Shown here: piece by piece, positions 3,795 through 42,750 of the stretch
How positions within the stretch are numbered: the first letter of the stretch is position 1
Layout of the letters: every line of letters starts with the position of its first letter
Source of the DNA: a virus
Lineage: Duplodnaviria > Caudoviricetes
Length of the DNA: 64,000 nt
Direction: 5' to 3' (one strand)
Virus record (IMG/VR): IMGVR_UViG_3300049009_000874
Span: 32,001-96,000 of that record
Program-made: the position numbers and the translations under genes
Notes under the pieces: model-generated
Database searches by the model: none
What the model was told of the DNA's origin: nothing
The model's input: the letters and a program-made list of their open reading frames with translations, nothing else

Positions 3795-3836
3795 CCGAAA
3801 GCTGTAAGCCGAACAAAAAAAGGAACGAGGTGATTT

Positions 3837-6928: not shown

Positions 6929-8284
6929 ATGAAGGTTGAAATCGTCGGTTTCGAGCATTTGCATTTACACTCCGACTTCTCCGTCCTCGACGGGCTTGGA
7001 ACGTGCGAGGAGTACGCCCTCCGCGCCACCCAGATAAACCAGAACTTCCTCACCATCAGCGACCACGGAATGCTCGGCGCCGTACCGAGGCAGATACGAG
7101 CCTGCGACAAGGTCTGCGACAAGTTCGGCAAGGACAAGCTTTCCCCCATATTCGCCACCGAGCTTTACGTCAACAGGCTTCAGCCGCAGAGCAACTCGCT
7201 CGAGGACATGCAGAAGTTCTCTGGAGACCTTTCCCCCGAAGAGTTGCTGGAGCTCCGCCCAAGCCCCCACCTCCTCGCCATAGCGCACAATGAGATCGGC
7301 TACAAGAACCTCGTGAGGCTCACCAGCTGGGGCTGGACCAAGGGGTTCTACCGCAAGCCGAGGGTGAACTACGAGCAGCTCGAGAAGCACAAGGAGGGCT
7401 TGCTCTTCACGAGCTGCTGCTACAACAGCGAGATCGGGCGGGCGTTCGAGTCCGGCGGCGAGGAGGCTGCGCTCTCCATGATCGACAGGTATGTCGGGAT
7501 GTTCGGCAGGGAGAACTATTTCCTCGAGATAATGCTGCTTGATTTCGTGAAGCAGAAGCCCTACGACGCCTTCATAGTCAAGGCTCACCAGAAGACTGGT
7601 CTGAAGATAATCCTTTCGAACGACGTCCACTACTGCCGCAAGGAGGACAGCAAGCTGCAGCGTCTCATGCTGATGGTGCAGACCGGCAGGACGATACAGG
7701 ACATAGAGAAAGCCATGAAGGAGGACTCCATGCAGGACTTCTTCGAGCTGCAGGACAGCAACCTCTGGATGAAGTCGGAGGAGGAGATCAACGAGAAGTG
7801 GCTGAGCCACTACAGCGACGTCATCCCTTACGAGATATTCTGCGAAGCCAAGAAGAACACGGTCGAGATTTGCAGGAAGGCGAAAGGGGTGCAGCTGGAC
7901 AGGAGCCTGAAGCTTCCCGTCTTCCCGGACTGCGACGAGAGGCTCAAGGAATATGTCGTCATCGGGTTCAGGGGCAGGAATCTCCCTTCGACCAGGGAAT
8001 ACAGGGACAGGATCAAGGAGGAGCTCAGCCTTATCATAAGGAAGGGGTTCAGCACGTACTTCCTCATCCAGAAGATGATGACGGACGAGGCTAGGAAATG
8101 GTGCAGGGAGAACGTCGGCGGCGACGGGACCCAGGCTGTGGGTCCGGGGCGCGGATCCGCTTGCGGTTCGCTGGTGTGCTACTGTCTAGGGATAACGGAC
8201 GTCGACCCGGTCTACGAAGGTCTGCTGTTCAGCAGGTTCATGAGCGAAGCCCGCGGGGGAAGGTCTATCTGCTTCGATGCCTGA
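6929..8284 (+). CDS. dnaE: DNA polymerase III alpha, N-terminal polypeptide (PHP domain plus first part of palm/thumb)
   Basis: HLHLHSDFSVLDG, TISDHG, NDVHY, GPGRGSACGSLVCYCLGITDVDP, LLFSRF; stops before PDIDxD. Confidence 0.93.
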   Translation: MKVEIVGFEHLHLHSDFSVLDGLGTCEEYALRATQINQNFLTISDHGMLGAVPRQIRACDKVCDKFGKDKLSPIFATELYVNRLQPQSNSLEDMQKFSGDLSPEELLELRPSPHLLAIAHNEIGYKNLVRLTSWGWTKGFYRKPRVNYEQLEKHKEGLLFTSCCYNSEIGRAFESGGEEAALSMIDRYVGMFGRENYFLEIMLLDFVKQKPYDAFIVKAHQKTGLKIILSNDVHYCRKEDSKLQRLMLMVQTGRTIQDIEKAMKEDSMQDFFELQDSNLWMKSEEEINEKWLSHYSDVIPYEIFCEAKKNTVEICRKAKGVQLDRSLKLPVFPDCDERLKEYVVIGFRGRNLPSTREYRDRIKEELSLIIRKGFSTYFLIQKMMTDEARKWCRENVGGDGTQAVGPGRGSACGSLVCYCLGITDVDPVYEGLLFSRFMSEARGGRSICFDA

Positions 8285-9332
8285 CGTTTCTGGCATGGAG
8301 GTCTATGTCTCTCTCGACCATGTCCTTCACCAGCGAAGAGAAGTTCGTTTTCGGTTTCCACCCTAGGCTTTCCCTGGCTTTGCCGGACACCCCCCTCAGC
8401 GCGTCGATCTCTAGCGGCATATTGAGGGAACTGTCTATCTCGACCTTACCCTTCCATTCCCCGAGACCTGCGCAGACGAACGCCTGGCTCAGGAATTCCT
8501 CGACGGAATGGGTCTCGCCCGTCGATATCACGAAATCCTCAGGGTCGTCATTCTGGAGCATCATCCACATCGCCAGGCAGTAGTCCTCGGCGTGACCCCA
8601 GTCCCGCATAGACGATATGTTCCCTAGCTGAAGCTTGCCTTCGGACAATCCGTTCTTCTTCCTGCCGATCCAGCTCGTTATCTTCCTTGTCACGAAATCC
8701 TCGCCCCGCCGCGGGCTTTCGTGGTCGAACAGTATTCCCGAGCAGGCGAACATCCCGTGGGACTTGCGGTATATGCTTATGAGGTTGTGGGCAGCCAGCT
8801 TGGATACGGCGTAAGGGGAGTTCGGGGACATGCATGTCCGCTCGTCCTGGAAGGCTTCGAGGTCGAGGAACTCCTTCGGGTCGACCTTCCCGCTCCGTTC
8901 CGCCCTGTTGCCGTCCTTGTCGATGAACGAGAAGCACGACCCGAACATATCGCTCGTCGAAGCCTGGTAGACCCTGGAGCGCCAGGAATGGTTGACGACG
9001 GCTTCGATGAGGTAGAGAACCCCCTTGAGGTCAACGTCTATCGTGTAGGAGGGCTGGATGAAGGACTCTCCGACATGGCTCTGGGCAGCCAGGTTGTATA
9101 TCTCGTCCGGCTTGTGCTCCGAAACGACCTTCCGCACGAACAACGGGTCGCATATGTCCCCCTGCACCACCGAGAACCTCCTGTGCCCCAGCACGGTCTC
9201 CAGCCTGGACATGTTGTTCGAGGACGACCTCCTCGAGATGCCGGTCACCTCGTATCCCTTGCCCAGGAGGATCTCCGAAAGGTAAGATCCGTCCTGTCCT
9301 GTGACTCCGAAAACCATGGCTGTTTTTGACAT
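8265..9332 (-). CDS. gmd: GDP-mannose 4,6-dehydratase
   Basis: GVTGQDGSYL, YNLAAQSHV, SPYAVSK, HESPRRGEDFVTRKIT, RDWGHAEDY. Confidence 0.96.
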   Translation of the reverse strand: MSKTAMVFGVTGQDGSYLSEILLGKGYEVTGISRRSSSNNMSRLETVLGHRRFSVVQGDICDPLFVRKVVSEHKPDEIYNLAAQSHVGESFIQPSYTIDVDLKGVLYLIEAVVNHSWRSRVYQASTSDMFGSCFSFIDKDGNRAERSGKVDPKEFLDLEAFQDERTCMSPNSPYAVSKLAAHNLISIYRKSHGMFACSGILFDHESPRRGEDFVTRKITSWIGRKKNGLSEGKLQLGNISSMRDWGHAEDYCLAMWMMLQNDDPEDFVISTGETHSVEEFLSQAFVCAGLGEWKGKVEIDSSLNMPLEIDALRGVSGKARESLGWKPKTNFSSLVKDMVERDIDLHARNVRHRSR

Positions 9333-9419
9333 TTTTTTCCTTTTTGGTGTATTATCTGAAATAGTATTTTTTGCGAATATGTCATTTGAAAATTTAAAAA
9401 AACAAACTATATTGATTTT

Positions 9420-9839
9420 ATGGAAACTACAATCACCGTAGATCTCGGCACGATGCCGGATCTAATCTACATGATCATCAAGGACGAAACTTTATTCGCT
9501 GAATTGAAGGCGGAATTTCCAGATATTCTTGCCGACCTGACAACACTGAAGACCAACCCGAACTGCTCATGCAGGGGCAAGGTTGGCAAGTTCTTCTCCG
9601 ACAAAGTGGCTACCGATCCGAACATCTTGGAGAAGTACTACAAGGACAAGGCTGCGATAGTCAAGGAACTTGAAGCGATCAAGCTGAAAAGAGTCAACAA
9701 CGCAATCAACGGCAAAGTCTTCAAGGTGCAGCTCGGCGACGAGGCTTGGGCTAATTTCAACAAGACCATTGTTGGAAAAACCTTCAGAAGCTTCTCCGTT
9801 GTCCGAGAGTTCGACTACATGTGGGTATACTTCCTATGA
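9420..9839 (+). CDS. hypothetical protein (NPNCSC motif)
   Basis: 139-aa ORF divergent from gmd. Confidence 0.8.
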   Translation: METTITVDLGTMPDLIYMIIKDETLFAELKAEFPDILADLTTLKTNPNCSCRGKVGKFFSDKVATDPNILEKYYKDKAAIVKELEAIKLKRVNNAINGKVFKVQLGDEAWANFNKTIVGKTFRSFSVVREFDYMWVYFL

Positions 9840-10129
9840 TTGAGTCGTTTTTGATCTATCTGGTCGCGTGCCTTGGCGTCACCTACGCCTGGTCCGACAC
9901 CGATGTAGCGCGACCTTTCAGGAACCTGGTAGCCAGGATACCATATGTAAATGTCCCGATGCTCTGCCACGAGTGCAGCAGCTTCTGGTTCTCGTTGGGA
10001 ATCTCATTTCTGCTCAACCCGGTTGGCGAACTATGTGTTCCGTTTTCCGGGAATCTGATTTCCGCCTTTTGCGGCTTTTTCGCGAACCTGGTGTTCGTTC
10101 GAAACCGGTTGGTGGCATACAAGGAATAG
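9836..10129 (+). CDS. small membrane protein with CxxCxxxW motif (DUF1360-like)
   Basis: ATGA overlap; hydrophobic segments; CHECSSFW. Confidence 0.65.
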   Translation: MIESFLIYLVACLGVTYAWSDTDVARPFRNLVARIPYVNVPMLCHECSSFWFSLGISFLLNPVGELCVPFSGNLISAFCGFFANLVFVRNRLVAYKE

Positions 10130-10146
10130 GGATGACTTGAAATAGG

Positions 10147-10183
10147 GAAAAGGGCTGGCTTGATATTCAAGCCAGCCCTTTTC
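10147..10183. terminator. bidirectional intrinsic terminator
   Basis: Perfect 17-bp inverted repeat GAAAAGGGCTGGCTTGA-tat-TCAAGCCAGCCCTTTTC between convergent genes. Confidence 0.9.
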
Positions 10184-10187
10184 TCGT

Positions 10188-13100
10188 TTAGCAACCCTGA
10201 TCGTCATAGCCGTTGAAGAAGAACGTGTGGGTTGGAGGGTTTGGCGGCGAACCGGGATATGTGGCTGCCCTTGTGTGCGACAGCGTGCCCGAGCCGGCAT
10301 ATCCGCTGAGAGACACGGTTATAGAGGTTCCGACCGGAACATTTACGGCTCCAAACGAAATTGCGGACGACGAGTTGCTTATGGTGCCGCCCGGACCCCA
10401 GGATGTCGTGTAGCTCATCGATCTGGATCCCGGGGTAAGAGCGGAAGAGACGCAAGACGGGGAATTGTATGGATAAACGCAATCGCCGCCGCATCCGTAA
10501 GCCTGGAAGTAAATCTTGATCGTCAATGGCGGCAAGTTGCATGACCCTAAAATGCATTCTTCGCCCGGTTCGCAGTCGTTTCCGCATTCCCCGCAGTTTG
10601 CTTCGTCTGTCTGGAAGTACGAGCTGTCCCGGCAAGTCCCGGCGCAGCATGTTTGCCCCGCAGTGCAGGCGTTTCCGCATTCCCCGCAGTTTGCTTCGTC
10701 CGTCTCGAGGGAGCTGGTGGCGACGCATGAGCCGGCGCAACAAGTTTGTTCCGCGGTACAAGGTTGTCCGCAACCGCCGCAGTTTGCTTCGTCCGTCTGG
10801 AGGGAACTGGTGGCAATACATTCCCCGCAGCATGTTTCGCTTTCAGCGCAAACGATTCCGCAGTTCCCGCAGTTGGCTTCATCCGTCTCGAGGGAAATGG
10901 TGTCGATACATGACCCGGCGCAACATGTTTCCCCGGCGGCGCAAGGTTGTTCGCAACCGCCGCAGTCGGTTTCGGAGGTCTGGAAGTACGAGCTGTCCCG
11001 GCAAGTTCCGCCGCAACATTCCCCGCCAGCGCAAGGTTGTTCGCAGCCTCCGCAGTTGGCTTCGTCCGTATCGGTGTTCACGCACGACCCGCCGCAACAT
11101 GTTTCCCCGGCGTCACAAGCGATGCATAGCAGACCGCAGTTTGATTCGTCGGTATCCGTATCCTTGCAGTCTCCGCCACAGCAATGACCCGTAATGCATA
11201 CATTTCCGCAAGATCCGCAGTTACTATCGTCGTTCCCGTAGATGTCTTTGCATTCCCCTCCGCAACATTCCAAGTCTCCGGTGCATTTGTTCGGACATGA
11301 ACCGCAATGGTCCTTGTCGTTGTCGAGATTTTTGCAAGAGCCATCGCAGCATGTCTGTTCCGCGAGGCAAACATTCGGACATGTTCCGCAATGACCTTCA
11401 TCGTTCTTTGTGTCTACGCATGTATCGTTCGGAAAATCACCGCAACATGTAAGTCCGTCGGGGCATGAGCCGCCGCAAGGTGCGCATGTCGGGAAATGCT
11501 CGGATTCGTCTTCGTAAACAGATGGACAGCCACCATTGCAAAGCGTGCCCCCTGGGTGTTCATGATCGCAACAGGTATAGTTGCTTGGATTAGCCCCATA
11601 AGTTCCAAGAATGTCGTAGTTGCAACCTACTGCGTCGTGCCCCCATGGAGCCGTGCATTTATATTCCGAAGGGTTATCATAGTCAAGATACCTGCAACTT
11701 GCGCATGGTCCTTCTCCGGCGGAACAATATCCCACAGAAGGGCATGCATTTCCATGTGCCTCCGCAAAGGCTCCCGTGCATTCCGGGACATTGCAGGAGT
11801 CGTAGCATTCGCAACTGACGAGTTCCCATTGCAGGTTATTCACGTTCCCTATCGCCTTGTATTCGCAGCCTCCGAAGCATGTTTTTGCCGGCAGCGAGGG
11901 ATTTGGCGGCGGATCTGATGGAGGACATGCGTCATAGGTGCATGGTATGGTCGTTCGTTGACCCCAGAAGGTTGGCGCAGATCCCAACAAAAAAGCTTGT
12001 TGGGATTCTGTCGGAAGTTTGCATGTTCCGCACGGAACACACTCGCCATTCACGCATTTTGTCGTTGGAGGATCGCCCGACTCAGGGCATTCAGCACCAC
12101 TTTCCACTGCGTTGCATTTATTCCCGCAACCGCCGCAGTTGTCGTTGTCCGTATTTGGGTCTACGATAGTCGCGGTCGGTTTTGGTAGATCGCCATAAAT
12201 ATTTGGAGGACCCCACTTTGGGCAGCAAATATCAGTGCCAACAGTTCTAATCCCGCAACCGCCGCAGTTGTCGTTGTCCGTCAAAGTGTTAACGGGTTCC
12301 CCATCACAGCACTTTTGTTGCACTTGATCGGATGTATCCACAGCGTTCCCGCAACCGCCGCAGTTTTCGTCATCGGTGTTTGGGTCTACTTGAGTGGCTG
12401 TCGGTCTTGGTAGCTCGCCATAAATATCTAGTGGACCCCAATGTGGGCAGCAAATCTTAGGAGCTTCAACCCTAACGCCGCAGGCGCCGCAGTTGTCGTC
12501 GTCAGTCAAAGTGTTAACGGGTCCCCCATCACAGCACTTTTGTTGCACTTGATCGGATGTATCCACAGCGTTCCCGCAACCGCCGCAGTTTTCGTCATCG
12601 GTGTTTGGGTCTACTTGAGTGGCTGTCGGTCTTGGTAGCTCGCCATAAATATCTAGTGGACCCCAATGTGGGCAGCAAATCTTAGGAGCTTCAACCCTAA
12701 CGCCGCAGGCGCCGCAGTTGTCGTCGTCAGTCAAAAGGCTGACTGGTTCACCCTCACAGCATTTTTGTTGCACTTGATCGGATGTATCCACAACATTCCC
12801 GCAACCGCCGCAGTTCTTGTCATCGGTGTTTGGGTTTACTTGGGTTGCGGTTGGTGGTGGTGGATCGCCATATGCATCTGGAGGACCCACATGCGGGCAG
12901 CAAATCTTAGGCGCAAGAGCCCTAGTGCCGCAGGCACCGCAGTTGTCGTCGTCAGTCAAAAGGCTGACGATCTCACCATCACAGCATTTCTCTTTTACAT
13001 ATGGCGATGTGTCCGCGACATTCCCGCAACCGCCGCAGTTTTCGTCATCGGTATTCGTGTTGGTAATAAAGAAAGTTGATTCGTCTGGAGCGCCAGCAAT

Positions 13101-16100
13101 AACAACTGGTTTCGGACAGCAGGATGTCGGATCTGTTGGATTGTCTGGATCGGCTGTGTCTCCGCAACTCAAGCAATTTTCATTTGACCCTTTTGCCGTC
13201 GGAACCCCGTCGCAGCAAAGTTCTTCGGCTACTACTTCGCAATCGCCGCAATTTTCAAGATCACTAAGTACATCTATGCACGAGCCACCGCAGCATTTTG
13301 TTCCTTCTCCGCAAGCGTCGCCGCAATCGGAACAGTTGGTGTCTGTGCCGACGTCGGTGCATTCGTTTTCGCAACACATCTGTCCTTCCGTGCATGAGTT
13401 CGGACAGTCACCGCATGGATTGTCAATGCATGTTCCAGAACAGCATTTCTGTTCCGGATAGCACACTGGAGTTTGGCAAGACGTGCAACGTCCATTCCCG
13501 TCACAGTATTGATCCGCGGTGCAACATGCCTTGTTGTTCCCAGAGCCACAGCAAATCGTTCCGGCGTCGCAACACTCGCCGTTGCAGCAGGTCGTTCCGG
13601 GAACTGTACATTCGCATTCCACGCACCCGCCGCCTTCTCCGCAATAATCGGAATCCGCGCAGCACCCGTCATTGCAGCAAACCTTGCAGCATGTCGTTCC
13701 GCCTTCGCAGCATGTTTCGCCCTCGGCGCACGGAGAAGGGCATTCTGCGCAAACTCCATCTTTGCAAGCCTGTCCTTCAGCACAAGGGGCTGCATCACAA
13801 CTACCGCAATGGGCGGTGTCGGTCTGCATGTCAACGCATTGCGAATCACAACATGTCTTTCCGTTTGGGCAAGGATTTGGAACGCAAACGCTTCCGTCCC
13901 CGCTGCAACCGGCGGCGCAGTTCTCCGCCCCGATGTACTCTCCTATCTTCGCCTGGGTTTCAGCGTTGAACGATGCTTTTGGTATACAGTAGGTTGGCAT
14001 ATCTTGTCCTTCTATGTTATTTACACAAAAATATATATCTCCGACACACGCCAATTTATCGTCAACACATGACAATCTGTCGTCCGCGCAATACGTGTAG
14101 TCCGGTTCTTGTCCGCAAGTGCCATAAAAAGCAGAATACCCAGGCTCCTCGTGTAAAACCCAAGCACCTCCCACGGCATCAAAATAACAAGATCCATCAC
14201 AGCTTACTGTATTTCCAACGCATGAAGCCACGAAAGCGACATCGTTCGGTTCGGGTTGTGGAGGCATTCCCTGTTCGTATCCCTGACACTCACATTCTGG
14301 TTCCGCACAGTTTCCCAAGAAGCATTTCGGAACTGTAAATGTGTCGCCTGGAGGTTCTTGGCATGTCAATCCGCAGATCCCGCAGTTGTCGGGATCAGTT
14401 TTTAGGTTTCTGCAAACGCCATTGCAGCATTGCCACAGATTGATCTGGTTGATTCCTTGCGGACACTCTATTCCGCAGTCACCACAGTTGTACATGTCGT
14501 TGAGAGGGTTCTTGCAAACCCCACCGCAACATATAAATCCAGGAGCGCAAGCGTATCCGCAAGAGCCGCAGTTGCTCTCGTCAGACCATATGTCGATACA
14601 TGAATTGTTGCAGCAAGCGGTTCCAGCCGCAAGACATGGAGGGTTGCATGCCAAGCAAACTCCATTTACGCACGAGTGTCCTCCGACACATACGGTTCCG
14701 CAATTCCCGCAGTTGTTGTTGTCGGTGTTTCTGTTCACGCAATTGCCGTCGCAACAGGTGTTTCCGGCAGGACAGCAATTGCCGTTGCAGCATGTTTCGT
14801 TAATGCCACAAGGATGGTAGCAAGATCCACAATGGTTTACGGAAACATTTAAAGGTATGCATTCGTAATTGCAGCACTGAATGTTGAGGGCAGGATCGAA
14901 AGCGCATTGGAAGTTGCAACTTCCGCAATTAAATGTCGAGTCTTTTATGTTTTGGCATCCCCAGGCTGTTTCGTCATAACAACATGTTTCTCCTTCCGCA
15001 CAAACACTGCCGCAATATCGGCAATTGTTAGGATCGGTCCGTAAGTCTTTGCACTCGCCATCGCAGCATGTCTGTGGAGTCGTGCTTCCCGGACCGCTGC
15101 AAAATGTAACGCAATCTCCGCAAAAATCCGGGTCGTTGTAGATGTCCTTGCAAGTTGGTGTTCCATCGACGGTGCAGCAGCCGTCTTCTGTGCAGCATTC
15201 GCCGTTGCAGCAGAACCCCAGAGGAAATAGACACGGAATTCCGCAACCGCCGCAATTTGCGTTGTCGTCATTTGTGTTTTTGCACTCACCGCCACAGCAT
15301 TCTTGTCCTTCTCCGCATGCCGGGACGCAACTGGCGCATTCGTAGGTTACGACCTGACCATCGGTACCATCTGCCGTCGGCGCTTCTCCTGGACAGTTGC
15401 ATCCCTGTGGGCATGTCGCAGTCGCAGTCCATGATCCAGCCAACGCCCTTACTGTTCCGTTTTCATCCTCGTCTGTTGACAATGCGTGGAATGAGGGATA
15501 CATGCACACGCAGTTTTGAAAAGCAGTTTGTCCAGACAGGCAAACATCCGATGGCATTCCGGGAGCGACTTTTCCAGTACAACCAGCGGGGCAGTCATCG
15601 GGTGTAGTCCAGCTTCCAGTAAGAAAAACAGGATTCGAAGGGTCTTCTGGACAAGAAGGACTTGGCAACCAAGTCCAGTTAATTGTAACATTGCAATCTT
15701 CTGGAAGGCACTGACCACATGGTTCGAGAGCTTCAGGTGGAGACCATATTTTATATTCGGCACCAAGACATGTTGGGCGATCAGGAACTCCGATAGCTTC
15801 ATAATCAAAACAGCAAGTCGAATCTCCAGTTGAACAATTTTCTTCTGTTGGCACAAGACTAGTCAAGTAAAAACCCAACTGAGCATTTCCATTACTAGGA
15901 TCGTTAGCAAGGCAGGTGTAAGTTTTACAGCACCCAGTAGTAGTAGTACATGGCTCTGGACTCCATGTCAGGTAAAAAAAACCTGTAGATTCTGGGCTTC
16001 CATCGCAAGGTATATTTGGAGGGCTATCGACAGAGCAATCTGTAACTGACGGGTATTGCGATTGAAACACATACTCATTTTCAGTCGAACAGACATAACG

Positions 16101-16784
16101 GCTACAACATCCAGTAACGGTTTCTTCACCCCAAGTCCAAGAACAGTTGTTCAACGCGCAAGGGTCTTTGCAGACACCATTGTCGCATATTTTACCGGAC
16201 GCACATGGAACACCGCAACCACCGCAGTTCGATGTGTCGGAACCCATGACGTTCACGCAAGAACCGGAACAGCAGCTTTCCCCGGCAAGGCAAGTATTTC
16301 CGCAATAGCCGCAGTTCGCAACATCTGTCTGGAGTGATTCCGTGTCGATACAATCGCCGGTGCAGCATGTTTCCGAAGGTTCGCAAGCTATTGTGCAAGA
16401 ACTGCAATGGTCATGATCAGTTTGCAGATCCACGCAAACATTGTCACAGCATGTCTCTGATGGTTCGCATTGAACGCCACCACAGAGGCAGCAGGTGCCG
16501 GTGCATTCGACTTGAACGATACCTTCGCAGCACCCGATTAGGGTTTCATTCGATCCTTCGAAGTCAGGATCGCATGGAGGAGGATTTGTCGGCAATCCGG
16601 GCGGCGGAGAAGATGAGCATCCTTCCGGACAAGGAACAGTCAGAACCCACTGGACATTGTCAAGTGGTCCGCCACATTTTCTCGGGTCCCAAACTACAGC
16701 TTCATAAGAGGCAGAGTGTCCGCAACCTTTTTCGGCAAGTGCGAAAACTATATCCCAATTCTCCACCAGTTTTGGATCTATCAT
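10188..16784 (-). CDS. giant Cys-rich protein of STIG1-like repeats (2198 aa)
   Basis: Dozens of D-x2-NCG-x-CG-x2-C-x(4-5)-CC-x-G-x-C units; beta-rich non-repeat C-terminus. Confidence 0.85.
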   Translation of the reverse strand: MIDPKLVENWDIVFALAEKGCGHSASYEAVVWDPRKCGGPLDNVQWVLTVPCPEGCSSSPPPGLPTNPPPCDPDFEGSNETLIGCCEGIVQVECTGTCCLCGGVQCEPSETCCDNVCVDLQTDHDHCSSCTIACEPSETCCTGDCIDTESLQTDVANCGYCGNTCLAGESCCSGSCVNVMGSDTSNCGGCGVPCASGKICDNGVCKDPCALNNCSWTWGEETVTGCCSRYVCSTENEYVFQSQYPSVTDCSVDSPPNIPCDGSPESTGFFYLTWSPEPCTTTTGCCKTYTCLANDPSNGNAQLGFYLTSLVPTEENCSTGDSTCCFDYEAIGVPDRPTCLGAEYKIWSPPEALEPCGQCLPEDCNVTINWTWLPSPSCPEDPSNPVFLTGSWTTPDDCPAGCTGKVAPGMPSDVCLSGQTAFQNCVCMYPSFHALSTDEDENGTVRALAGSWTATATCPQGCNCPGEAPTADGTDGQVVTYECASCVPACGEGQECCGGECKNTNDDNANCGGCGIPCLFPLGFCCNGECCTEDGCCTVDGTPTCKDIYNDPDFCGDCVTFCSGPGSTTPQTCCDGECKDLRTDPNNCRYCGSVCAEGETCCYDETAWGCQNIKDSTFNCGSCNFQCAFDPALNIQCCNYECIPLNVSVNHCGSCYHPCGINETCCNGNCCPAGNTCCDGNCVNRNTDNNNCGNCGTVCVGGHSCVNGVCLACNPPCLAAGTACCNNSCIDIWSDESNCGSCGYACAPGFICCGGVCKNPLNDMYNCGDCGIECPQGINQINLWQCCNGVCRNLKTDPDNCGICGLTCQEPPGDTFTVPKCFLGNCAEPECECQGYEQGMPPQPEPNDVAFVASCVGNTVSCDGSCYFDAVGGAWVLHEEPGYSAFYGTCGQEPDYTYCADDRLSCVDDKLACVGDIYFCVNNIEGQDMPTYCIPKASFNAETQAKIGEYIGAENCAAGCSGDGSVCVPNPCPNGKTCCDSQCVDMQTDTAHCGSCDAAPCAEGQACKDGVCAECPSPCAEGETCCEGGTTCCKVCCNDGCCADSDYCGEGGGCVECECTVPGTTCCNGECCDAGTICCGSGNNKACCTADQYCDGNGRCTSCQTPVCYPEQKCCSGTCIDNPCGDCPNSCTEGQMCCENECTDVGTDTNCSDCGDACGEGTKCCGGSCIDVLSDLENCGDCEVVAEELCCDGVPTAKGSNENCLSCGDTADPDNPTDPTSCCPKPVVIAGAPDESTFFITNTNTDDENCGGCGNVADTSPYVKEKCCDGEIVSLLTDDDNCGACGTRALAPKICCPHVGPPDAYGDPPPPTATQVNPNTDDKNCGGCGNVVDTSDQVQQKCCEGEPVSLLTDDDNCGACGVRVEAPKICCPHWGPLDIYGELPRPTATQVDPNTDDENCGGCGNAVDTSDQVQQKCCDGGPVNTLTDDDNCGACGVRVEAPKICCPHWGPLDIYGELPRPTATQVDPNTDDENCGGCGNAVDTSDQVQQKCCDGEPVNTLTDNDNCGGCGIRTVGTDICCPKWGPPNIYGDLPKPTATIVDPNTDNDNCGGCGNKCNAVESGAECPESGDPPTTKCVNGECVPCGTCKLPTESQQAFLLGSAPTFWGQRTTIPCTYDACPPSDPPPNPSLPAKTCFGGCEYKAIGNVNNLQWELVSCECYDSCNVPECTGAFAEAHGNACPSVGYCSAGEGPCASCRYLDYDNPSEYKCTAPWGHDAVGCNYDILGTYGANPSNYTCCDHEHPGGTLCNGGCPSVYEDESEHFPTCAPCGGSCPDGLTCCGDFPNDTCVDTKNDEGHCGTCPNVCLAEQTCCDGSCKNLDNDKDHCGSCPNKCTGDLECCGGECKDIYGNDDSNCGSCGNVCITGHCCGGDCKDTDTDESNCGLLCIACDAGETCCGGSCVNTDTDEANCGGCEQPCAGGECCGGTCRDSSYFQTSETDCGGCEQPCAAGETCCAGSCIDTISLETDEANCGNCGIVCAESETCCGECIATSSLQTDEANCGGCGQPCTAEQTCCAGSCVATSSLETDEANCGECGNACTAGQTCCAGTCRDSSYFQTDEANCGECGNDCEPGEECILGSCNLPPLTIKIYFQAYGCGGDCVYPYNSPSCVSSALTPGSRSMSYTTSWGPGGTISNSSSAISFGAVNVPVGTSITVSLSGYAGSGTLSHTRAATYPGSPPNPPTHTFFFNGYDDQGC
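10576..11160. repeat. imperfect ~115-120-bp coding repeats (TDEANCGxC...TCCxGxC)
   Basis: Repeated ccgcagtttgcttcgtc and tggaagtacgagctgtcccggcaagt blocks. Confidence 0.8.
12121..13060. repeat. ~4 tandem copies of a 225-bp (75-aa) coding unit
   Basis: cc(a/c)tcacagc recurs at 12301, 12526, 12751 and 12976; the middle copies are nearly identical. Confidence 0.92.
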
Positions 16785-18064
16785 TTTGTTTCCACCTTTT
16801 CAGATGGAGTTATGTTCTGTACTTTTTGCGATGCCAATATTTGGTCTGGTATAACCTTGAATCTCAACTTGTGCGACTTGAAGATTTCAATCACTTCATC
16901 TTTTTTCCCTGGATCTATTTCCCTGTTCGAAACGATCTCTATGAAATCGTTTCCGCAATTCACCTGCCTTATCTCCGTCAGACCGGTTTCCATCAGCTTC
17001 TTCTTGTATTCGTTGATCGAATGCCCTTTTATGGCGAAGGGACGGTTCTCCAGGAACTTGAATTCCCTGTACAACCTTCCGCAAGAGCATCTCTGGTATT
17101 TATCGCCTATCTTGCACCTGTCTCCGTTCCAGAATTTGACGAAAGGACAAGCCAAGGAGAAGTAATCGGTCGACACGAGCCTTTCCTCGTTTTCGACACA
17201 CCAGGAGAGGTTATCCATCAAATGATAGTTCTTGTCCCTGCATGTAAAGAATGAGGAGCCACCATCCCAACATCTCATATGATCGCATATATGTGACACA
17301 TAGTTGTTGTCGAGAAGAAACTTAGAGTCTTCATCTAGAATTTTTTCATTACTATTACTTAACAAGTTGCACAGTTTCCCCTTATAGTTTTCCTTTTTGA
17401 TGTAAGAGCATATTTTTTTTATTTGCGGTCCGGGAGCGAATATCACATCCATTTTTTTTGCATTCAAATATTTGAGTAGATATTTTTGGAATACTTCTTC
17501 TTTTTCTTTTTGGAGTTTCGTGTTTGCGTAATGGACCATTGCGGTTCTTTTCGTTCCGTGGTGTTCCATGAAGTTCTTGCTTTTCGATGTGTTGCTTATG
17601 GGTCTTGGACCACTTCCGAACGAGGAGTTGAAAAAGTACATGATGTGTGGATTCTGTGGTATTTCGTATTCGTCTAGAATTAGGTCGTAGTGGTTTTCTC
17701 CTTCGATGAAATAAAGGAAAGGTTCCCATCGCAAGTACTCGAATCCCTCGCCGGTGGTGCTTCCGCTGCTTTTCATCGGCATGGATTCAGCTTCCAGGCA
17801 TTTCACGTACCACTTGCTTTTGTCTGCGAGATCCTTTTTCACAAAAAAAGGCAGGTCTTTCTTGTTCGCGTAAGCTTCGGAATGCCTCTCAGCCCAGGAC
17901 GATATGTTTCTTTTCAGTATGTCTATCGTCTCGGCGACGAGTTCCTCGTCGTGCAGGAGTAGGTCTTTGCATATTGGCTTGTAGTCGTAGGGAATTTGCG
18001 TGGAAGGATCGGCGAAGTTTTTCCACTTCTGGATGAACTGTTTTATTTCCTGTGTATTCCGCAT
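16781..18064 (-). CDS. CapK/PaaK (phenylacetate-CoA ligase)-like adenylate-forming enzyme
   Basis: P-loop-like SSGSTTGE; LVSTDYF..CPFVKFWNGD and RCSCGR...LENR resemble the PaaK/CapK C-terminal motifs. Confidence 0.75.
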   Translation of the reverse strand: MRNTQEIKQFIQKWKNFADPSTQIPYDYKPICKDLLLHDEELVAETIDILKRNISSWAERHSEAYANKKDLPFFVKKDLADKSKWYVKCLEAESMPMKSSGSTTGEGFEYLRWEPFLYFIEGENHYDLILDEYEIPQNPHIMYFFNSSFGSGPRPISNTSKSKNFMEHHGTKRTAMVHYANTKLQKEKEEVFQKYLLKYLNAKKMDVIFAPGPQIKKICSYIKKENYKGKLCNLLSNSNEKILDEDSKFLLDNNYVSHICDHMRCWDGGSSFFTCRDKNYHLMDNLSWCVENEERLVSTDYFSLACPFVKFWNGDRCKIGDKYQRCSCGRLYREFKFLENRPFAIKGHSINEYKKKLMETGLTEIRQVNCGNDFIEIVSNREIDPGKKDEVIEIFKSHKLRFKVIPDQILASQKVQNITPSEKVETK

Positions 18065-18735
18065 CCGTCCCTCAGAAAGAAATTAAGTGTTACCTTGTTG
18101 GTGTGACTCCATTTCACATCGGGAACCCATCTCGAGACTATGTCCCAGTCGTTGCACTTTTTAACGTAGCGCCAACCTCCGTGTTTTTCTATGAGGTATC
18201 TAGTGTGCATAATCTCAGAAGTATCTATATAACCAGCCTTTGGAATATCGTTGTGAATTCTCTCCCCGACAACTTTTTTGTTGGAATCGTAAAGTCTGGT
18301 TCCCGTGTAGCACATGTCGCTTTTCGTTTCGGTTATGGTTCTGTAGAGGGACTCTATGTGGTCCGGCTCATACCAGTTGTCGTCGTCCAGATAGGCTATG
18401 AGATCGTGCTTCGTGTTCATTATGGCGAAGTTCCTGGGAGCCCATCCTGCTCCGCTGTGGTTGACCGGGAGCGTGAAGAACTTGAACCTCTCGTCCTTGG
18501 AGCATATGTCCTCGAAATATTTCTGGGTGTATTTGCAGTTGTCGCATTCCAGGCATGTCCTTTCGAAATTGCTGAAAGTGCAGGCTTCGGAGCATCCGTC
18601 CTTGACGACGTAGCAGTCGAAGTTCTTGAATGTTTGTTTCAGAAGTGATTCCGTGCACCTTTCTAGCCACTCTGGGCTTGAGTGGTAGGTAGGCAGGCAT
18701 ATAAGAACTTTATCCAGACATCCATGTCTTGACAT
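18043..18735 (-). CDS. glycosyltransferase family 2
   Basis: ICLPTY, SLLKQTFKNFDCYVVKDG, PRNFAI, IAYLDDDNWY, CNDWD. Confidence 0.9.
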   Translation of the reverse strand: MSRHGCLDKVLICLPTYHSSPEWLERCTESLLKQTFKNFDCYVVKDGCSEACTFSNFERTCLECDNCKYTQKYFEDICSKDERFKFFTLPVNHSGAGWAPRNFAIMNTKHDLIAYLDDDNWYEPDHIESLYRTITETKSDMCYTGTRLYDSNKKVVGERIHNDIPKAGYIDTSEIMHTRYLIEKHGGWRYVKKCNDWDIVSRWVPDVKWSHTNKVTLNFFLRDGCGIHRK

Positions 18736-18782
18736 TTACCTCCTTGTGTAAAAATCTAACGAGAAACTATCTTTGTTTCTCG

Positions 18783-19781
18783 TTAGATTTCGTCAACAGG
18801 TCCGGGAACTGGTCCCATCTTTTTCAGCGCCTTGTGAGCGTGGTGGCGGTGGCGGTGTCCGCCGATCGATTTCGAAAGGGCTGAATCGCCTTCGCCATCT
18901 TCGCCGTCATGGTCCTCATCGCCTTCGCCGTCATGGTCCTCATCGCCTTCGCCGTCATGGTCCTCATCGCCTTCGCCATCTTCGTCGTTTTCCATGTCTT
19001 CATCGTCTTCATCTTCATGATCTTCATCGCCTTCGTCACCTTCCATGTCTTCATCGCCTTCATCTTCATGGTCTTCTTCACCTTCGCCTTCTTCGTCACC
19101 TTCCATGTCTTCATCCCCTTCACCTTCGCCGTCAATTTTGAACTCATCGTCTTCCTCTTCGCCATTGCTTGAGTCGCCATCCATATAGCCCATCTCGTTC
19201 ATCATTTTCTGGAATGTGTTGTTGACTTTTATCTCCTCGATGATGGCTTTGATGGTGTTCTCGTGCTTGCAGGCTTCCGACAAGAACGAATCTATGAGGT
19301 TGCTTCTTTTTAGTTCCATGACAAGCTGTGACATGTTCGCTTGCGACTTGGAGCATAGATGTACTGCTTCCTTGATCTGACCATAGGACATGTTGCTTGT
19401 TTCGTTTCGCATCCCGCTTATGAAGCTGGAATTGCTCATGTTCTTCGTGTTCCTCAGCCATTCGGACACGCTTGTGGTTTTCGGCCAAGTCGGAAGCTTC
19501 TCGTGTTCTGATGACTTAACGACGGTTTCTGGCTCGTAAACCAATTCCTTGTCTCCCATGTCCGCGAACCCATCAGATGACTTGTTTGGGTTTTTTGCCA
19601 TTTTGTTCGCCATATATGGCTTTGGAGCCATGTTCGATTTTGCCCCGCCAGCGTTCTTGTCCACTTCAGCCTTAGGTGGAGCGGACGAGCTTGGTCCCTT
19701 GTAATCCGGAACCATCTCGGTTGCTGGGGTTTTGATTTTTTTGTCGTGGGTCAAATATTCTTGAAAACTTCTGAATGCCAT
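18783..19781 (-). CDS. protein with capsid-targeting-like N-terminus, long acidic repeat tract and His-rich tail
   Basis: MAFRSFQEYL; (GDEDHDGE)n; GGHRHRHHAH. Confidence 0.8.
   Translation of the reverse strand: MAFRSFQEYLTHDKKIKTPATEMVPDYKGPSSSAPPKAEVDKNAGGAKSNMAPKPYMANKMAKNPNKSSDGFADMGDKELVYEPETVVKSSEHEKLPTWPKTTSVSEWLRNTKNMSNSSFISGMRNETSNMSYGQIKEAVHLCSKSQANMSQLVMELKRSNLIDSFLSEACKHENTIKAIIEEIKVNNTFQKMMNEMGYMDGDSSNGEEEDDEFKIDGEGEGDEDMEGDEEGEGEEDHEDEGDEDMEGDEGDEDHEDEDDEDMENDEDGEGDEDHDGEGDEDHDGEGDEDHDGEDGEGDSALSKSIGGHRHRHHAHKALKKMGPVPGPVDEI
18899..18977. repeat. 24-bp tandem repeat x3 within a larger degenerate acidic tract
   Basis: cttcgccgtcatggtcctcatcgc, three exact copies. Confidence 0.92.
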
Positions 19782-19935
19782 GATTGCTCCATAATAATTC
19801 TTGTTAGGATGACTAATCCTATATAGAAGGATTTCTTTTGAAAATAATTCCGTTTGGGTGTTGATTTTTTAAATTGTATCTGTTAAATTTCTCGATCTGT
19901 GCTTAAAGGATTTTTCACCCATGAAGGAGTTTGGC

Positions 19936-20445
19936 ATGAATCAGTATGTCGTATATGGATTTTTGGCTGTTTCCGTAGCAATCAACGGATATCAGGTCTA
20001 CAGAATGGATAACATGAGGGAAGTGGTTAATCTGGTGACCCAGAAAGACCAGTTGACCCAGTCGGGATACAGCGAATTGCTTTACAACCACATAAACAGC
20101 TTGAGAAACGACCAGATTGAGGCTTCGAGGAACCAGGGGAAGATCGAGGGAATCATCTCCGTCGTCAACAACGCGAAACCGGAAGCCAACGAGATAAGTT
20201 CGATCTGGCATAGCGGCTACTATAGAGGCATGGACCAGGTTGAGTTTGTCAGGGTTATGGCTTATGAGGATGGATACCACAGAGCTACCGAGGACATAAG
20301 CTGCCCAGCAGGGAATTCGACCAACAATAAAACCAAAATTGGAACCAAGCCCGAGACCAAGCCCGAGACCAAGCCCGAGACCAAGCCAGAGACCAAGCCA
20401 GAGACCAAGCCAGAGACCAAGCCAGAGACCAAGCCGATCAAGTAA
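19936..20445 (+). CDS. membrane-anchored protein with (TKPE)7 tail
   Basis: AAGGAG RBS before ATG 19936 (alternative start 19921); N-terminal hydrophobic helix. Confidence 0.8.
   Translation: MNQYVVYGFLAVSVAINGYQVYRMDNMREVVNLVTQKDQLTQSGYSELLYNHINSLRNDQIEASRNQGKIEGIISVVNNAKPEANEISSIWHSGYYRGMDQVEFVRVMAYEDGYHRATEDISCPAGNSTNNKTKIGTKPETKPETKPETKPETKPETKPETKPETKPIK
20344..20436 (+). repeat. 12-bp tandem repeat x7.75
   Basis: accaagcccgag x3, then accaagccagag x4, then a partial copy. Confidence 0.95.
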
Positions 20446-20545
20446 TTCGTCGATCAGGCTGTCACTTTGCGCTTCTCAAAAAAACTAAAGTGCATTGGAA
20501 TTCGTTCTGCGGTGGCGCGCAGGGCTCTCTCACACGGAGACATAC

Positions 20546-20620
20546 ATGAGAAAACAAGTCGTGATGTCTTTTAACGAGGTTTTTAGTTTACCTTATCCTG
20601 TAGATATTCGCCAAAATTGA
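20546..20620 (+). CDS. possible 24-aa sORF
   Basis: GGAGA 5 nt before ATG; MRKQVVMSFNEVFSLPYPVDIRQN*. Confidence 0.3.
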   Translation: MRKQVVMSFNEVFSLPYPVDIRQN

Positions 20621-20664
20621 TCGAGGTTGGGATCGAACCTTGAGCGACTTGTAGGCAAAGTGCG

Positions 20665-20692
20665 ACAAAAAGGGCTTAAACGCCCTTTTTGT
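20665..20692. terminator. bidirectional intrinsic terminator
   Basis: ACAAAAAGGGC-ttaaac-GCCCTTTTTGT between convergent units. Confidence 0.85.
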
Positions 20693-21093
20693 TATTTGTG
20701 CTCTCTGTTTCTTATGAGCAGTTCGCCGACGACTTCTATCTTGCCGACCAGTTTCTGGAACTTGCTCTGGTTTACTTTTTCTATTTTTTCCATGTAAGAG
20801 TGGAGTTCCGAGCACAACCTCTTGTATTCCTCTTGCATTTTTTCTTTGTCGAACTTGCCTTGCGCTACCTTCTTGTAATATGGTAGTTTCACCGAGAAGT
20901 GGTCATACGTGAGCATCGCTATGCCTCCCTTGGATTTGGCGCTACTTGCTATCTTTTCAGCCCCATCGTGTCTCTTTTTGGCGAACTCATCAATGGTAAG
21001 CTCTGATTTCTGCTCATTGAGAACACCAGAAAGTAAAAGCATTTGCGCGCGTGTCTCTTCGTTCATTTCGACCTCTGTTTGTATGGAATGCAT
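20692..21093 (-). CDS. hypothetical protein
   Basis: 133-aa ORF; TAGATA lies immediately upstream of the ATG; a second ATG with GAGG RBS lies 9 codons in. Confidence 0.75.
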   Translation of the reverse strand: MHSIQTEVEMNEETRAQMLLLSGVLNEQKSELTIDEFAKKRHDGAEKIASSAKSKGGIAMLTYDHFSVKLPYYKKVAQGKFDKEKMQEEYKRLCSELHSYMEKIEKVNQSKFQKLVGKIEVVGELLIRNREHK

Positions 21094-21144
21094 TATCTAT
21101 AGTAGCTTGATGGAATATTTCTCTTATTGGAAAAGGCAAAAGCC

Positions 21145-23883
21145 ATGCTTAATTCTTACGAAAAGATAGAGAAACTTCTCTGGCACATATTCGACCGCAA
21201 GAGCCTTTCCGACAAGCACAGGAAGAGGCTGGAGTGGGAACTCCGCGAGATAGATGTCCAAGGGAAGTCCGACCACCTCATAAAGATGTTCAAGGACAAG
21301 GTTCGGTGTGACGGAAACGAGAACAACCTGATTTCATTCTGGCTCCTTGGCTTGTGCCAAGAATTCGACGTGGACCGCGACCCGAAATTCACTCAGGGCG
21401 ACATGCCGGACATAGACGTCGACTATCTCAGCGAGGTCAGGGACTACCTGAAGAACAAGTGGGCTTGCGAGACGTTTGGCGTGGACTACGTCTGCAACAT
21501 CGGCAACTACACGACCTTCGGAATCAAGAGCGCGTTGATCGACATGGCTAGGGTTCACGGTCTTCCAAGGGGTGATATGCTCGAGCTAACCAAGAACCTC
21601 GACGCCAAGGACGACGAGGGGAAGACGATGACCTGGGAGTCGGCGATGAACCTCTACCCGAAACTCAAGGAGTACTGCGACGCCAACCCGGACGTTGCCG
21701 AGTCGGCGCGCAAGCTCATAAACAGGAACAGGGGCATGGGTCAGCACGCCGGGGGTCTGATCATATCGTCGATGCCACTCCACGATCTGGTGCCGCTCGT
21801 GAAGAGGAAGGACAATCCGCAGGCGTCAGCCTGGGTCGAGGGTCTGAACGGACAGGACCTCCAGCCAGTCGGTCTGGTGAAGTTCGACCTCCTCGTGATC
21901 TCGAACCTGCAGCAGATATCGAGTTGCTGCGAGCTCGTGAAGAAAAACCACAACATGGACAGCATATGCGCCCTCCCCGGGCAGTCAGACTGGAGCGACG
22001 TCCAGAGGTGGAGGAACGACCCGAAGTCTTTGGCTATGGCTGACGTCGGGGACCTGAAGTGCATATTCCAGTTCGACAGCGAGGGCATCAGGAGGCTGGT
22101 CAAGTCCGGGGGCGTGGACCGTTTCGAGGATCTCGTGGCGTATACAGCCCTCTACAGACCCGGTCCGCTCGGAATGCTCATGCATGAAAGGTACACCAAG
22201 AGGAAGAGGGGCGAGGAGTCCTACGAGTTGCACCCGCTGGTCCAGCCAATACTCGGCGACACGTACGGGGTGATGGTGTACCAGGAGCAGATCATGCGCA
22301 TACTGAACAAGGTGGGCGAGATCCCGCTGCGGGACTGCGAGATCGTGCGGAAGGCTATATCCAAGAAAAAGGTCGAGGCATTCCAGAAGTACAAGAACAT
22401 GTTTGTCTCAAACGGACAGAGGAACCTCCAGACGACGGAGGAGGACATCATCAGCCTTTGGAATCAGGTCCAGGCTTTTTCTGAGTACGGATTCAATAAA
22501 AGCCATGCCGTCGCGTACACCTACGTCTCGGCGAGGCTGCTTTACTTCAAAGCCCATTACCCGCATGAGTTCTACACCTCGGTTCTGGGCTGCGAGACCT
22601 TGTCGGAGAAGATCAAGGAGTACAAGATAGAAGCCAAGAACCACGGCGTCGACATGCACGGCGTCGACATCAACAAGTCGAAGTCCACCTTCGAGCTGGT
22701 TGGGGATTCCATCTATTACGGTCTATCGAACGTCAAGGGCGTAGGTCAGGTTCCGGCGAAGAAGATCGTCGACAACCAGCCCTACGCCGGGTTCGAGGAT
22801 TTCCTCACGAGGTTCGGCACGGACGCCAACATAGTGAAGTGCGTCGTTGGTCTAAGGTGCTTCAGTGACTCGAACCCGATAACCTTGTGGAAGTTCTACG
22901 AGCACTTCAAGGAATGCCAGAAAAAGCTCGACGACAAGAAGAAAAGGTTCCTGGCGAGCATGGAGCAGTACGACGTCGAATTCCTCGAGCTTTTCCCCGG
23001 AGAGACCAGAAGCCTTTCCGAATTCCACGGCGACAGCCCATTCGACGGACCGGAATGGGCTGGCTTCGACATCGACGAGGTCATAGAGACCGAGAAGACC
23101 GTCGAGTGCGACCAGAGCCAGGGCAAGCCGAAGCTCGAGATGGAGTATGTCCCGATCCAGGGCACCGACGACTTCGTCGAGGTCCAGACGATCAGGAACT
23201 ACAAGTCGATCAAGGTGAAAAAGAACTGGAACAGGCTGAAGGAGCTGAAGAGGCTGTGGTCGAGAAGGGAAAAAGCCATGGCTAGGCTCGAGGACTCCAA
23301 GTCGTTGTCGCTGCCGACGCTCGCCTCGTTCAAGCCAAACGATTTCGAGATAGACAAGGATTTCGCCAAGGAACTGCGGAACAAGGTAGCCTGCGAGATG
23401 AAGTATTACGGTTTCGCCTGGATACACAACGTGGAGAACAGCCCGGACTTCAAGGGCAACACGTTCCAGACGCTGAGGGAGAACGACGGCTGCGTCTGCC
23501 CCGTCGAGGTCGAGGTCGTCTCGAGGAAGGTTTGCAAGAGCAAGAAGGGCAATTCCTACCTGCAGCTCGAGGTCGAGGACGCCATGGGCGAGAAAAACCG
23601 CCTGAACGTCTGGGAGGACGATGTTGCCCGCTGGGACAGAGAAATGAAGAAGGGTAACTTACTTAGGTTGAGGCTGATGCCGCCGGACAAGGGCTTCTCA
23701 ACGTATACCCTGGAACAGAACAAGAAGATGCCGAACAAGGGCTGGGCTTACAGGTTTCCGACCAAGGACAGCGACTACAGGGTTTTCGTGATGAAGCCGC
23801 CGGTGTCGGCGGAGGACAAGTACCAGACCGAGGACGAGGTTCTGGAACAGTTTGGAAATTGCATAATGGAGGACAAGAAATGA
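21145..23883 (+). CDS. dnaE: DNA polymerase III alpha, C-terminal polypeptide (catalytic palm, fingers, HhH, OB)
   Basis: MPDIDVDY, GQHAGGLII, GLVKFDLL, IFQFDS, LYRPGP, TYGVMVYQEQIM, YGFNKSHAVAY, GLSNVKGVG. Confidence 0.95.
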   Translation: MLNSYEKIEKLLWHIFDRKSLSDKHRKRLEWELREIDVQGKSDHLIKMFKDKVRCDGNENNLISFWLLGLCQEFDVDRDPKFTQGDMPDIDVDYLSEVRDYLKNKWACETFGVDYVCNIGNYTTFGIKSALIDMARVHGLPRGDMLELTKNLDAKDDEGKTMTWESAMNLYPKLKEYCDANPDVAESARKLINRNRGMGQHAGGLIISSMPLHDLVPLVKRKDNPQASAWVEGLNGQDLQPVGLVKFDLLVISNLQQISSCCELVKKNHNMDSICALPGQSDWSDVQRWRNDPKSLAMADVGDLKCIFQFDSEGIRRLVKSGGVDRFEDLVAYTALYRPGPLGMLMHERYTKRKRGEESYELHPLVQPILGDTYGVMVYQEQIMRILNKVGEIPLRDCEIVRKAISKKKVEAFQKYKNMFVSNGQRNLQTTEEDIISLWNQVQAFSEYGFNKSHAVAYTYVSARLLYFKAHYPHEFYTSVLGCETLSEKIKEYKIEAKNHGVDMHGVDINKSKSTFELVGDSIYYGLSNVKGVGQVPAKKIVDNQPYAGFEDFLTRFGTDANIVKCVVGLRCFSDSNPITLWKFYEHFKECQKKLDDKKKRFLASMEQYDVEFLELFPGETRSLSEFHGDSPFDGPEWAGFDIDEVIETEKTVECDQSQGKPKLEMEYVPIQGTDDFVEVQTIRNYKSIKVKKNWNRLKELKRLWSRREKAMARLEDSKSLSLPTLASFKPNDFEIDKDFAKELRNKVACEMKYYGFAWIHNVENSPDFKGNTFQTLRENDGCVCPVEVEVVSRKVCKSKKGNSYLQLEVEDAMGEKNRLNVWEDDVARWDREMKKGNLLRLRLMPPDKGFSTYTLEQNKKMPNKGWAYRFPTKDSDYRVFVMKPPVSAEDKYQTEDEVLEQFGNCIMEDKK

Positions 23884-42690: not shown

Positions 42691-42750
42691 TTATGTCAAC
42701 TCCGCTGATATATAGAATCAGACAATCAATATTTAACCAGGATGAACCAT

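Follow-up and report, generated by a model that had tools for sequence, protein, structure and literature searches.

A full-length DnaE encoded by two intein-free genes in a huge phage: a probable two-chain C-family replicase

Replicative polymerases are textbook single-chain catalytic subunits. Departures from this plan were described by Dassa et al. in 2009 for the cyanobacterial dnaE-n/dnaE-c genes and for “fractured” phage-like dnaE genes, which carry split inteins (PMC2677866). Iyer, Anantharaman, Krishnan, Burroughs and Aravind reported in 2021 that group 2.2 jumbo phages have a split “minimal” Pol III alpha encoded by two distant genes, one for the N-terminal part, which binds NTP, and one for the C-terminal part, which binds Mg2+ and the template; the authors predicted that the two parts reconstitute the enzyme (PMC7824862). 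In a full-text literature search, the latter paper was the only description found of an intein-free split Pol III alpha; the only divided forms mentioned in literature surveys of the bacterial C-family enzymes are intein splits and sequencing fragments. The subject here is a divided dnaE in a stretch of 64,000 nucleotides (nt), hereafter the window, which corresponds to positions 32,001 to 96,000 of the IMG/VR virus record IMGVR_UViG_3300049009_000874. In this window, DnaE is encoded by two intact open reading frames (ORFs) on the same strand, termed the N-half and the C-half, which are 12.8 kb apart. The record is 189 kb long and is estimated by CheckV to be 39% complete, and a huge phage is therefore its origin.

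The arrangement resembles that of Iyer et al. (PMC7824862) in that the boundary lies between the NTP-binding and the Mg2+-binding parts, there is no intein, and the genes are far apart. As judged from the published description, the jumbo-phage form differs in being a catalytic core only, without PHP or other DnaE domains, and in accompanying a family B polymerase, whereas here PHP, palm, thumb, fingers, HhH and OB are all present, there are contiguous sister forms, the junction is probably duplicated, and the origin can be traced. The split-intein dnaE genes resemble the present ones in being two separately expressed pieces, and relatives of this phage also have inteins, including one at a site of the FNK/SH type; however, the split-intein products are joined through protein trans-splicing, and at different sites, whereas this break is without intein parts, so that the product must stay as two chains. 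With the single-chain DnaEs (E. coli 2HNH/5FKU, Taq 2HPI/3E0D, M. tuberculosis 5LEW/7PU7 and that of phage LR756511.1), the two halves share the domains, their order and the catalytic residues; they differ in that the chain is broken at E. coli residue 396/397, inside the nucleotidyltransferase core, and that a head of 85 amino acids (aa) and a tail of 9-45 aa have been added to the C-half and the N-half, respectively. A full-length DnaE with PHP split in this way, with a probably duplicated junction and a traceable origin, is what is new here.

The N-half matches the Pfam PHP family (2.6e-34) and positions 17-98 of the 260 positions of PF07733 (DNA_pol3_alpha), and it aligns with solved structures over residues 82-396 of E. 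coli alpha and 9-416 of M. tuberculosis DnaE1. Its palm part comprises helices, the GPGRGS loop and LLFSRF...R442, and its C-terminal end reads LLFSRFMSEARGGRSICFDA before the stop. The C-half, of which residues 82-94 read FTQGDMPDIDVDY, matches PF07733 positions 99-259, the fingers family (1.6e-38) and HHH_6 (1.4e-11), and it aligns with Taq alpha 460-925 at 1.5e-73. By structural comparison, for which the alignments give first and last aligned residues only, its model residues 105-593 lie on chain residues 397-910 of E. coli alpha (2hnh; Z 21.0), and residues 767-886 match OB folds. When both ORFs are combined, all four Pfam families of the DnaE domain set are above cut-off; solved DnaE chains match the halves at 1e-28 to 1e-73 and, by structure, with Z of 18-21. 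The only PF07733 matches in the window and the whole record are these two halves.

The initial annotation, which had given the sequence strings and coordinates of two intact same-strand ORFs, was correct on these points and also on a cut just before the catalytic aspartates: the break falls at E. coli alpha residue 396/397, four residues upstream of D401, which in the minimal Pol-beta-like nucleotidyltransferase fold is after helix alpha2 and before strand beta2, and it divides the PF07733 profile exactly. No single polypeptide contains the whole palm, since the frame stops at 8282-8284 and a new start follows at 21145. Phage LR756511.1 (595 kb), the nearest one in GenBank, encodes its DnaE as an unbroken chain of 1179 aa, of which residues 1-433 align with N-half 1-442 and residues 435-963 with C-half 92-618 (TTG numbering), from the D before MPDIDVDY. 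This end-to-end alignment indicates that no core residue is missing. The earlier statement that nothing is missing therefore stands for the core, but it overlooked what has been added, namely the 9-aa tail of the N-half and the conserved 85-aa head of the C-half.

The hG[GS] motif is a hallmark of the Pol-beta-like nucleotidyltransferases, and the roles of R362-G363-S364, R390, D401, D403, K553 and D555 of E. coli alpha are known from Pol III alpha structures. The catalytic triad and hG[GS] are both present in the window but are divided between the two polypeptides. On the N-half, R408, G409, S410, R436 and R442 are invariant in an alignment of 67 relatives, and R436 is the equivalent of R390; on the C-half, D89, D91, D93, K246 and D248 are invariant among relatives, and D89, D91, K246 and D248 are the equivalents of D401, D403, K553 and D555 (all E. 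coli equivalences being from alignment offset and motif strings). The C-half is without GRGS, LLFxRF or nucleotide-binding residues of the R390 type. In M. tuberculosis DnaE1, the PHP domain is the proofreader. All nine positions of the PHP metal ligands are conserved in the N-half (H12, H14, D21, H46, E78, H114, C163/164, D232 and H234), which suggests, from sequence, that its PHP domain is a proofreader too.

Taken with the constant linkage of the two ORFs described below, the complementary invariant residues and the lack of GRGS and R390 in the C-half make an obligate two-chain enzyme the best reading. The C-family replicase of this phage thus probably consists of two polypeptides that assemble non-covalently and form a composite active site, the split itself being old and inherited, with a duplication as its probable origin. 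The N-half would supply PHP (probably a proofreading nuclease) and the nucleotide-binding elements R408-G409-S410 and R436, whilst the C-half would supply the metal-binding D89, D91 and D248, along with K246, the thumb, the fingers, HhH and OB. Models of the isolated chains made with AlphaFold2 (AF2) are consistent with a two-chain palm, because it is the palm sheet that is not built with confidence. The N-half alone has a mean predicted local distance difference test (pLDDT) score of 84.8, and only its residues 405-408 and 436-451 are below 50; in the C-half, the palm sheet elements at 83-125 and 194-243 are below 50, the rest being confident.

This division is widespread. A word-indexed search found more than 100 clusters of N-halves (430-490 aa, 65-98% identity) and more than 100 clusters of C-halves (880-940 aa, without PHP), on contigs of up to about 600 kb, which bears out the earlier suggestion that similar splits exist in other phages. 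A set of 61 IMG/VR loci was assembled, in which every N-half ORF stops shortly past ...LLFSRF(M/L)SxxRGG(R/K). The C-half was within reach in 29 loci, and all 29 have the same break, with the C-half 0.9-9.3 kb downstream on the same strand and preceded by a homologous head. Among longer proteins, those nearest to the N-half are N-halves with an intein; undivided full-length DnaEs are found only at 51-58% identity. These undivided forms group as one clade in a tree of the N-terminal region (Shimodaira-Hasegawa-like approximate likelihood ratio test, 100), and a single split clade is not rejected by the approximately unbiased test (p-AU 0.43). The split is old and inherited rather than a recent disruption.

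How might the two products be rejoined, if at all? Neither half has a Pfam match to a Hint/intein domain. The N-part of a split intein typically has about 88-105 aa, or is short and atypical, and begins with Cys or Ser; the N-half ends without anything of the kind, its tail being only 9 aa in the window and 9-45 aa among relatives and free of Hint/intein matches. The head has no C-intein signature, in that there is neither a terminal Asn nor a conserved Cys/Ser/Thr +1 nucleophile before PDID, and its end reads ...DP-x4-G-(D/E)-x-PDID across relatives. It is, moreover, helical and DnaE-like rather than HINT-like in both the AF2 model and the profile comparison. The inteins of relatives are readily detected, and so their absence at this break is meaningful: N-halves of relatives have inteins between FA and CELY, between ND and CHY and between GRG and S (the last being exactly the R408-G409-S410 motif), and every one of these intein-bearing N-halves, which are 800-1290 aa long, still ends 2-43 residues past position 447-450. 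C-halves of relatives carry in-frame inserts elsewhere, around Cbody 261-279 and at 367/368 (between FNK and SH).

The absence of an intein at the split, claimed in the initial annotation, is therefore borne out by Pfam, by the helical head and by the missing +1 nucleophile. A highly atypical split intein, or another ligation system built from the tail and the head, would rejoin the chains covalently; tail and head together have about 95-125 aa, which is near the size of a mini-intein, S446 in the tail is nearly invariant, and phage dnaE genes often carry inteins or split inteins (PMC2677866). However, besides the lack of a match where other inteins are easily seen, the head consists of helices only and is probably a homologue of the DnaE palm, it has no terminal Asn or His-Asn, and the tail in the window leaves only four residues after its single Cys, so that covalent rejoining is a very improbable explanation. 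The proposal of a non-covalent heterodimer, also made earlier, gains support from the lack of a splicing device and from the conservation of the break at all 29 loci, although assembly is something that we infer.

An explanation at the level of nucleic acid would be that the split is an artefact or a sign of decay, through misassembly, an insertion that interrupts a pseudogene, or a DNA excision or RNA trans-splicing that restores the gene. The gap does contain lineage-specific cargo, and its GC content ranges from 0.45 to 0.56. Against this, about 60 independently assembled sequences show the same architecture, neither ORF is interrupted, the catalytic residues are invariant, and coding conservation extends up to the N-half stop and from the C-half start. 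No direct repeats that would link the two junctions were found; Rfam gave nothing at gathering score in the window and nothing at E<=0.1 in 7900-21500; and no recombinase domain turned up in general Pfam scans of the gap ORFs. In addition, the opposite-strand genes in the gap, the strong terminator-like hairpin before the C-half and the gene divergent from it make a joined transcript implausible. This explanation can hardly be credited.

Taken together, relatives have inteins at no fewer than five dnaE sites (L015, L017, L024, L030 and L049, and P0031, P0076, P0093, P0123-P0230, P0244 and P0245). The window genes are free of inteins, although one is present in the 98%-identical C-halves P0244 and P0245. 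The L015 insert at 367/368 shifts the frame, which may reflect a further gene break or an intron.

The head of the C-half and the tail of the N-half require an explanation of their own. Across relatives, the head follows the pattern KRLxWExxEI..K..YFL.L...K..YP.NxNNLL..LLGI..DFDI..P....G..PDIDVDY, with R28, E32, N58, N60, N61 and G85 invariant. In a profile-profile comparison (hhalign), head residues 3-46 align with N-half residues 334-379 (P 6.9e-7), and when the head is compared with the whole N-half, this palm segment is the sole match (P 4.1e-6). A global hhalign alignment goes on to place NENNLISFWLLGL on GSACGSLVCYCLGI, and GDMPDIDVDY on the N-half tail GGRSICFDA (GGRSIxLEF in relatives), an extension without statistical support of its own. 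The AF2 helices of the head (4-19, 23-39, 42-50 and 63-67, at pLDDT 80-92) match N-half helices 335-349, 356-371, 375-395 and 415-419 in order. The tail GGRSICFDA itself is below 50.

These observations suggest that the head is probably a decayed copy of N-half residues from about 335-379 onward, as read from sequence and predicted fold, and that the tail is possibly a relic of the catalytic strand. The ancestral overlap between the ORFs would have been roughly 100-120 codons, and the decay reciprocal: the N copy retained GRGS and LLFSRF and lost the aspartates, while the C copy retained the aspartates and lost GRGS and LLFxRF. BLASTP between the N-half end and the C-half head is not significant, the similarity being seen by profile-profile comparison only; since searches of Pfam and PDB with a head-only hidden Markov model find no DnaE, the homology of the head rests on that comparison, on the order of the helices and on position. 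A head-only profile run against 1.84 billion representative proteins found 223 clusters, 120 of them at E<=1e-10, and in nearly all of these proteins it matches residues 2-88. Separately, tblastn alignments with distant phage DnaEs that run into the head were not reproduced as a significant local alignment and were treated as alignment drift.

The head and tail relics have probably been kept because they aid the folding or docking of the fragments. A more specific idea, to be taken as tentative and perhaps doubtful, is that they are a retained complementation module made of duplicated active-site elements, the C-half having kept a relic of alpha1-beta1-alpha2 and the N-half one of beta2, and that the fragments fold alone and then dock or swap strands, so that two chains form a single nucleotidyltransferase core. 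If so, a replicative polymerase would be reassembled in nature from “overlapping fragments”, and the phage could time the assembly of its replicase, which is conceivable because the halves sit in different transcription units.

Several points weigh against a two-chain enzyme. The binding of the two chains to each other is inferred. The head, with its invariant N58, N60 and N61, is under strong selection and could complete the palm within the C-half, in which case the palm segment of the N-half would be used differently. The head alone has no Pfam match at E<=10, and its profile finds no DnaE among PDB sequences, the only match being a chance one (0.18) to a phage tail protein. The backbone of the tree is unresolved, with the contiguous clade weakly nested among split forms. 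The genome is only about 39% complete, so that the record-wide searches cover a fragment. Finally, the same record encodes, outside the window, a PolA-like ORF (478 aa, PF00476 3.5e-27), and the split DnaE need not, therefore, be the sole polymerase. No family B polymerase (PF00136), DnaQ or beta clamp was found on the incomplete 189-kb record.

As the main alternative, one could envisage a self-sufficient C-half, in which the head completes the palm in cis, the NxNN loop replaces GRGS, and the N-half is an accessory subunit, in essence a PHP proofreading nuclease, whether bound to the C-half or not. The conservation of the head (E32 and G85 included) and its confident AF2 fold speak for this, as does one structural alignment of model residues 1-881 on M. 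tuberculosis DnaE1 314-1099, which would place the head homologously. However, that alignment has a root-mean-square deviation of 11.2 and consists of first and last residues only; AF2 builds no catalytic strands in the C-half alone; the head lacks both the hG[GS] that marks the fold and an R390 equivalent; and a nuclease-only role leaves the invariance of GPGRGS, LLFSRF and R442 in the N-half unexplained. A self-sufficient C-half is, on this evidence, unlikely.

Another possibility is that the halves have diverged in function and act in different complexes, for example, the N-half as a nuclease for the PolA-like enzyme and the C-half as a factor in DNA binding or repair. PolA-like and DnaB-like ORFs are indeed encoded elsewhere on the record, and the halves belong to separate transcription units. 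Yet the halves co-occur and stay linked in the order N-X-C (X being a gene described below) even where the flanks are rearranged, as in L073, complementary catalytic motifs are invariant on both, and there is no PF07733 match on the record beyond these two, all of which renders functional divergence distinctly improbable.

The PolA-like ORF and the DnaB-like helicase gene are at G000:C1:7080-7850 and 10034-10576 of the record (L067, L068).

The origin of the split can be approached by comparing the gene order with that of genomes in which dnaE is contiguous (n=5; L001 and L069-L072). In these, the order is PrkA - DUF444 - SpoVR - X(-) - E (AAA ATPase) - F (YspA/SLOG-like) - dnaE - G - H - I, and in split genomes it is PrkA - DUF444 - SpoVR - N-half - X(-) - (E) - head and C-half - ... 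- G - H - I. Gene X, which is directly upstream of the contiguous dnaE in the five genomes, was found by tblastn in the gap in all 25 split loci that have a homologue and both halves in reach, and just after the N-half in 7 more, always on the opposite strand except in L028 and L029. Its N-terminal part of about 200 aa is conserved in 34 loci, its C-terminal part has acidic 24-nt repeats (18868-19155), and neither Pfam, PHROG nor the protein atlas gave a lead to its function. Gene E is in the gap in 12 loci, where it often abuts the C-half (17250 and 17254 in L058), and none of the split loci has gene F. In L015, where the gap is smallest (881 nt), it is X that fills it. In the rearranged L073 (IMGVR_UViG_3300035183_000473), DUF444-SpoVR follow the C-half and X lies on the plus strand; the order N-X-C is kept.

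The simplest history, probably, is a two-step origin by partial duplication and loss, to which the synteny points. In a first step, a copy of the 5' 1.35 kb or so of dnaE would have been placed between SpoVR and X; in a second, gene F would have been deleted together with roughly the first 330 codons of the original dnaE. The overlap left by the duplication would survive as the C-half head and the N-half tail, and the space between the halves would then have turned into a variable site for cargo, here glycosylation genes and a giant repeat protein. That the extra cargo of the window occurs elsewhere only in its nearest relatives indicates that the gap grew secondarily.

An active site of a full-length DnaE that is divided between two proteins, and stably so across a large clade of huge phages, would mean that the Pol-beta-like core can withstand a break that separates its nucleotide-binding from its metal-binding half. 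With contiguous sisters, an overlap relic and matching synteny, the locus would offer a stepwise natural case of gene fission by duplication and reciprocal loss, and the halves are a ready system for studies of polymerase fragment complementation. There is also a lesson for annotation, in that such halves are readily mistaken for a truncated dnaE or for a pseudogene of it.

The features of the region are collected in Table 1. The distance between the halves in the window is the longest seen among the loci. The gap had been described as holding about ten unrelated genes; there are in fact about eight ORFs, most of them on the opposite strand, and “unrelated” applies to the lineage-specific cargo but not to gene X, which belongs to the ancestral block of dnaE neighbours. 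A divergent region of only 51 nt upstream of the C-half indicates that the latter heads its own transcription unit.

Table 1. The divided dnaE and the features between its halves (window positions)
Feature	Position	Strand	Remarks
DnaE N-half, 451 aa	6929..8284	+	ATG 6929, TGA stop 8282-8284; PHP and first part of palm
R408-G409-S410, hG[GS] nucleotide-binding motif of Pol-beta-like fold	8150..8158	+	E. coli R362-G363-S364 by alignment offset
Private 9-aa N-half tail GGRSICFDA	8255..8281	+	shortened form of clade-wide GG(R/K)SIxLEFKNxDPLPPEE (60-locus alignment)
GDP-mannose 4,6-dehydratase	8265..9332	-	Pfam 2.8e-105; convergent with N-half, overlaps its stop; among loci only in L006
139-aa ORF	9420..9839	+	no family found; directly after N-half in nearest relatives (tblastn 92-99% identity, same place, L007-L011)
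2198-aa cysteine-rich protein, 16 Stig1-like repeats	10188..16784	-	PF04885 7e-89; homologues only in nearest relatives
427-aa ORF and family-2 glycosyltransferase (18043-18735)	16781..18735	-	cargo common to L010/L011
Gene X, 332 aa	18783..19781	-	adjoins dnaE in split and contiguous relatives
174-aa ORF	19921..20445	+	ends in perfect 12-nt tandem array (20307-20435, family D7), KPET-type repeat
Terminator-like hairpin	20664..20693	+	12 pairs and T run; between gap genes and C-half unit
133-aa ORF	20692..21093	-	divergent from C-half, 51-nt intergenic region
DnaE C-half ORF	21145..23883	+	likely start ATG 21145 (start also used by relatives); frame open from 21106
C-half head, 85 aa	21145..21399	+	conserved helical segment; GRGS replaced by invariant N58-x-N60-N61
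C-half core	21400..23883	+	PDIDVDY (D89, D91), K246-F247-D248, thumb, fingers, HhH, C-terminal OB fold

The gene for the Stig1-repeat protein holds several nested families of internal DNA repeats. Along with the dehydratase gene (8265-9332) and the family-2 glycosyltransferase genes (18043-18735, 26580-27665, 41486-42211 and 58547-59344), it looks like an island for glycosylation or surface functions between the dnaE halves.

Directly upstream of the N-half, at 1722-6618 on the plus strand, is a module of PrkA (AAA and kinase-like), DUF444/YeaH and SpoVR, which is kept in split and contiguous relatives; this bacterial module of the stress or sporulation type is unusual in a phage. Other host-like genes in the window encode a peptide deformylase, a full DnaJ, PhoH and an amidoligase (31768-32328, 38739-39776, 42742-43470 and 45974-46948).

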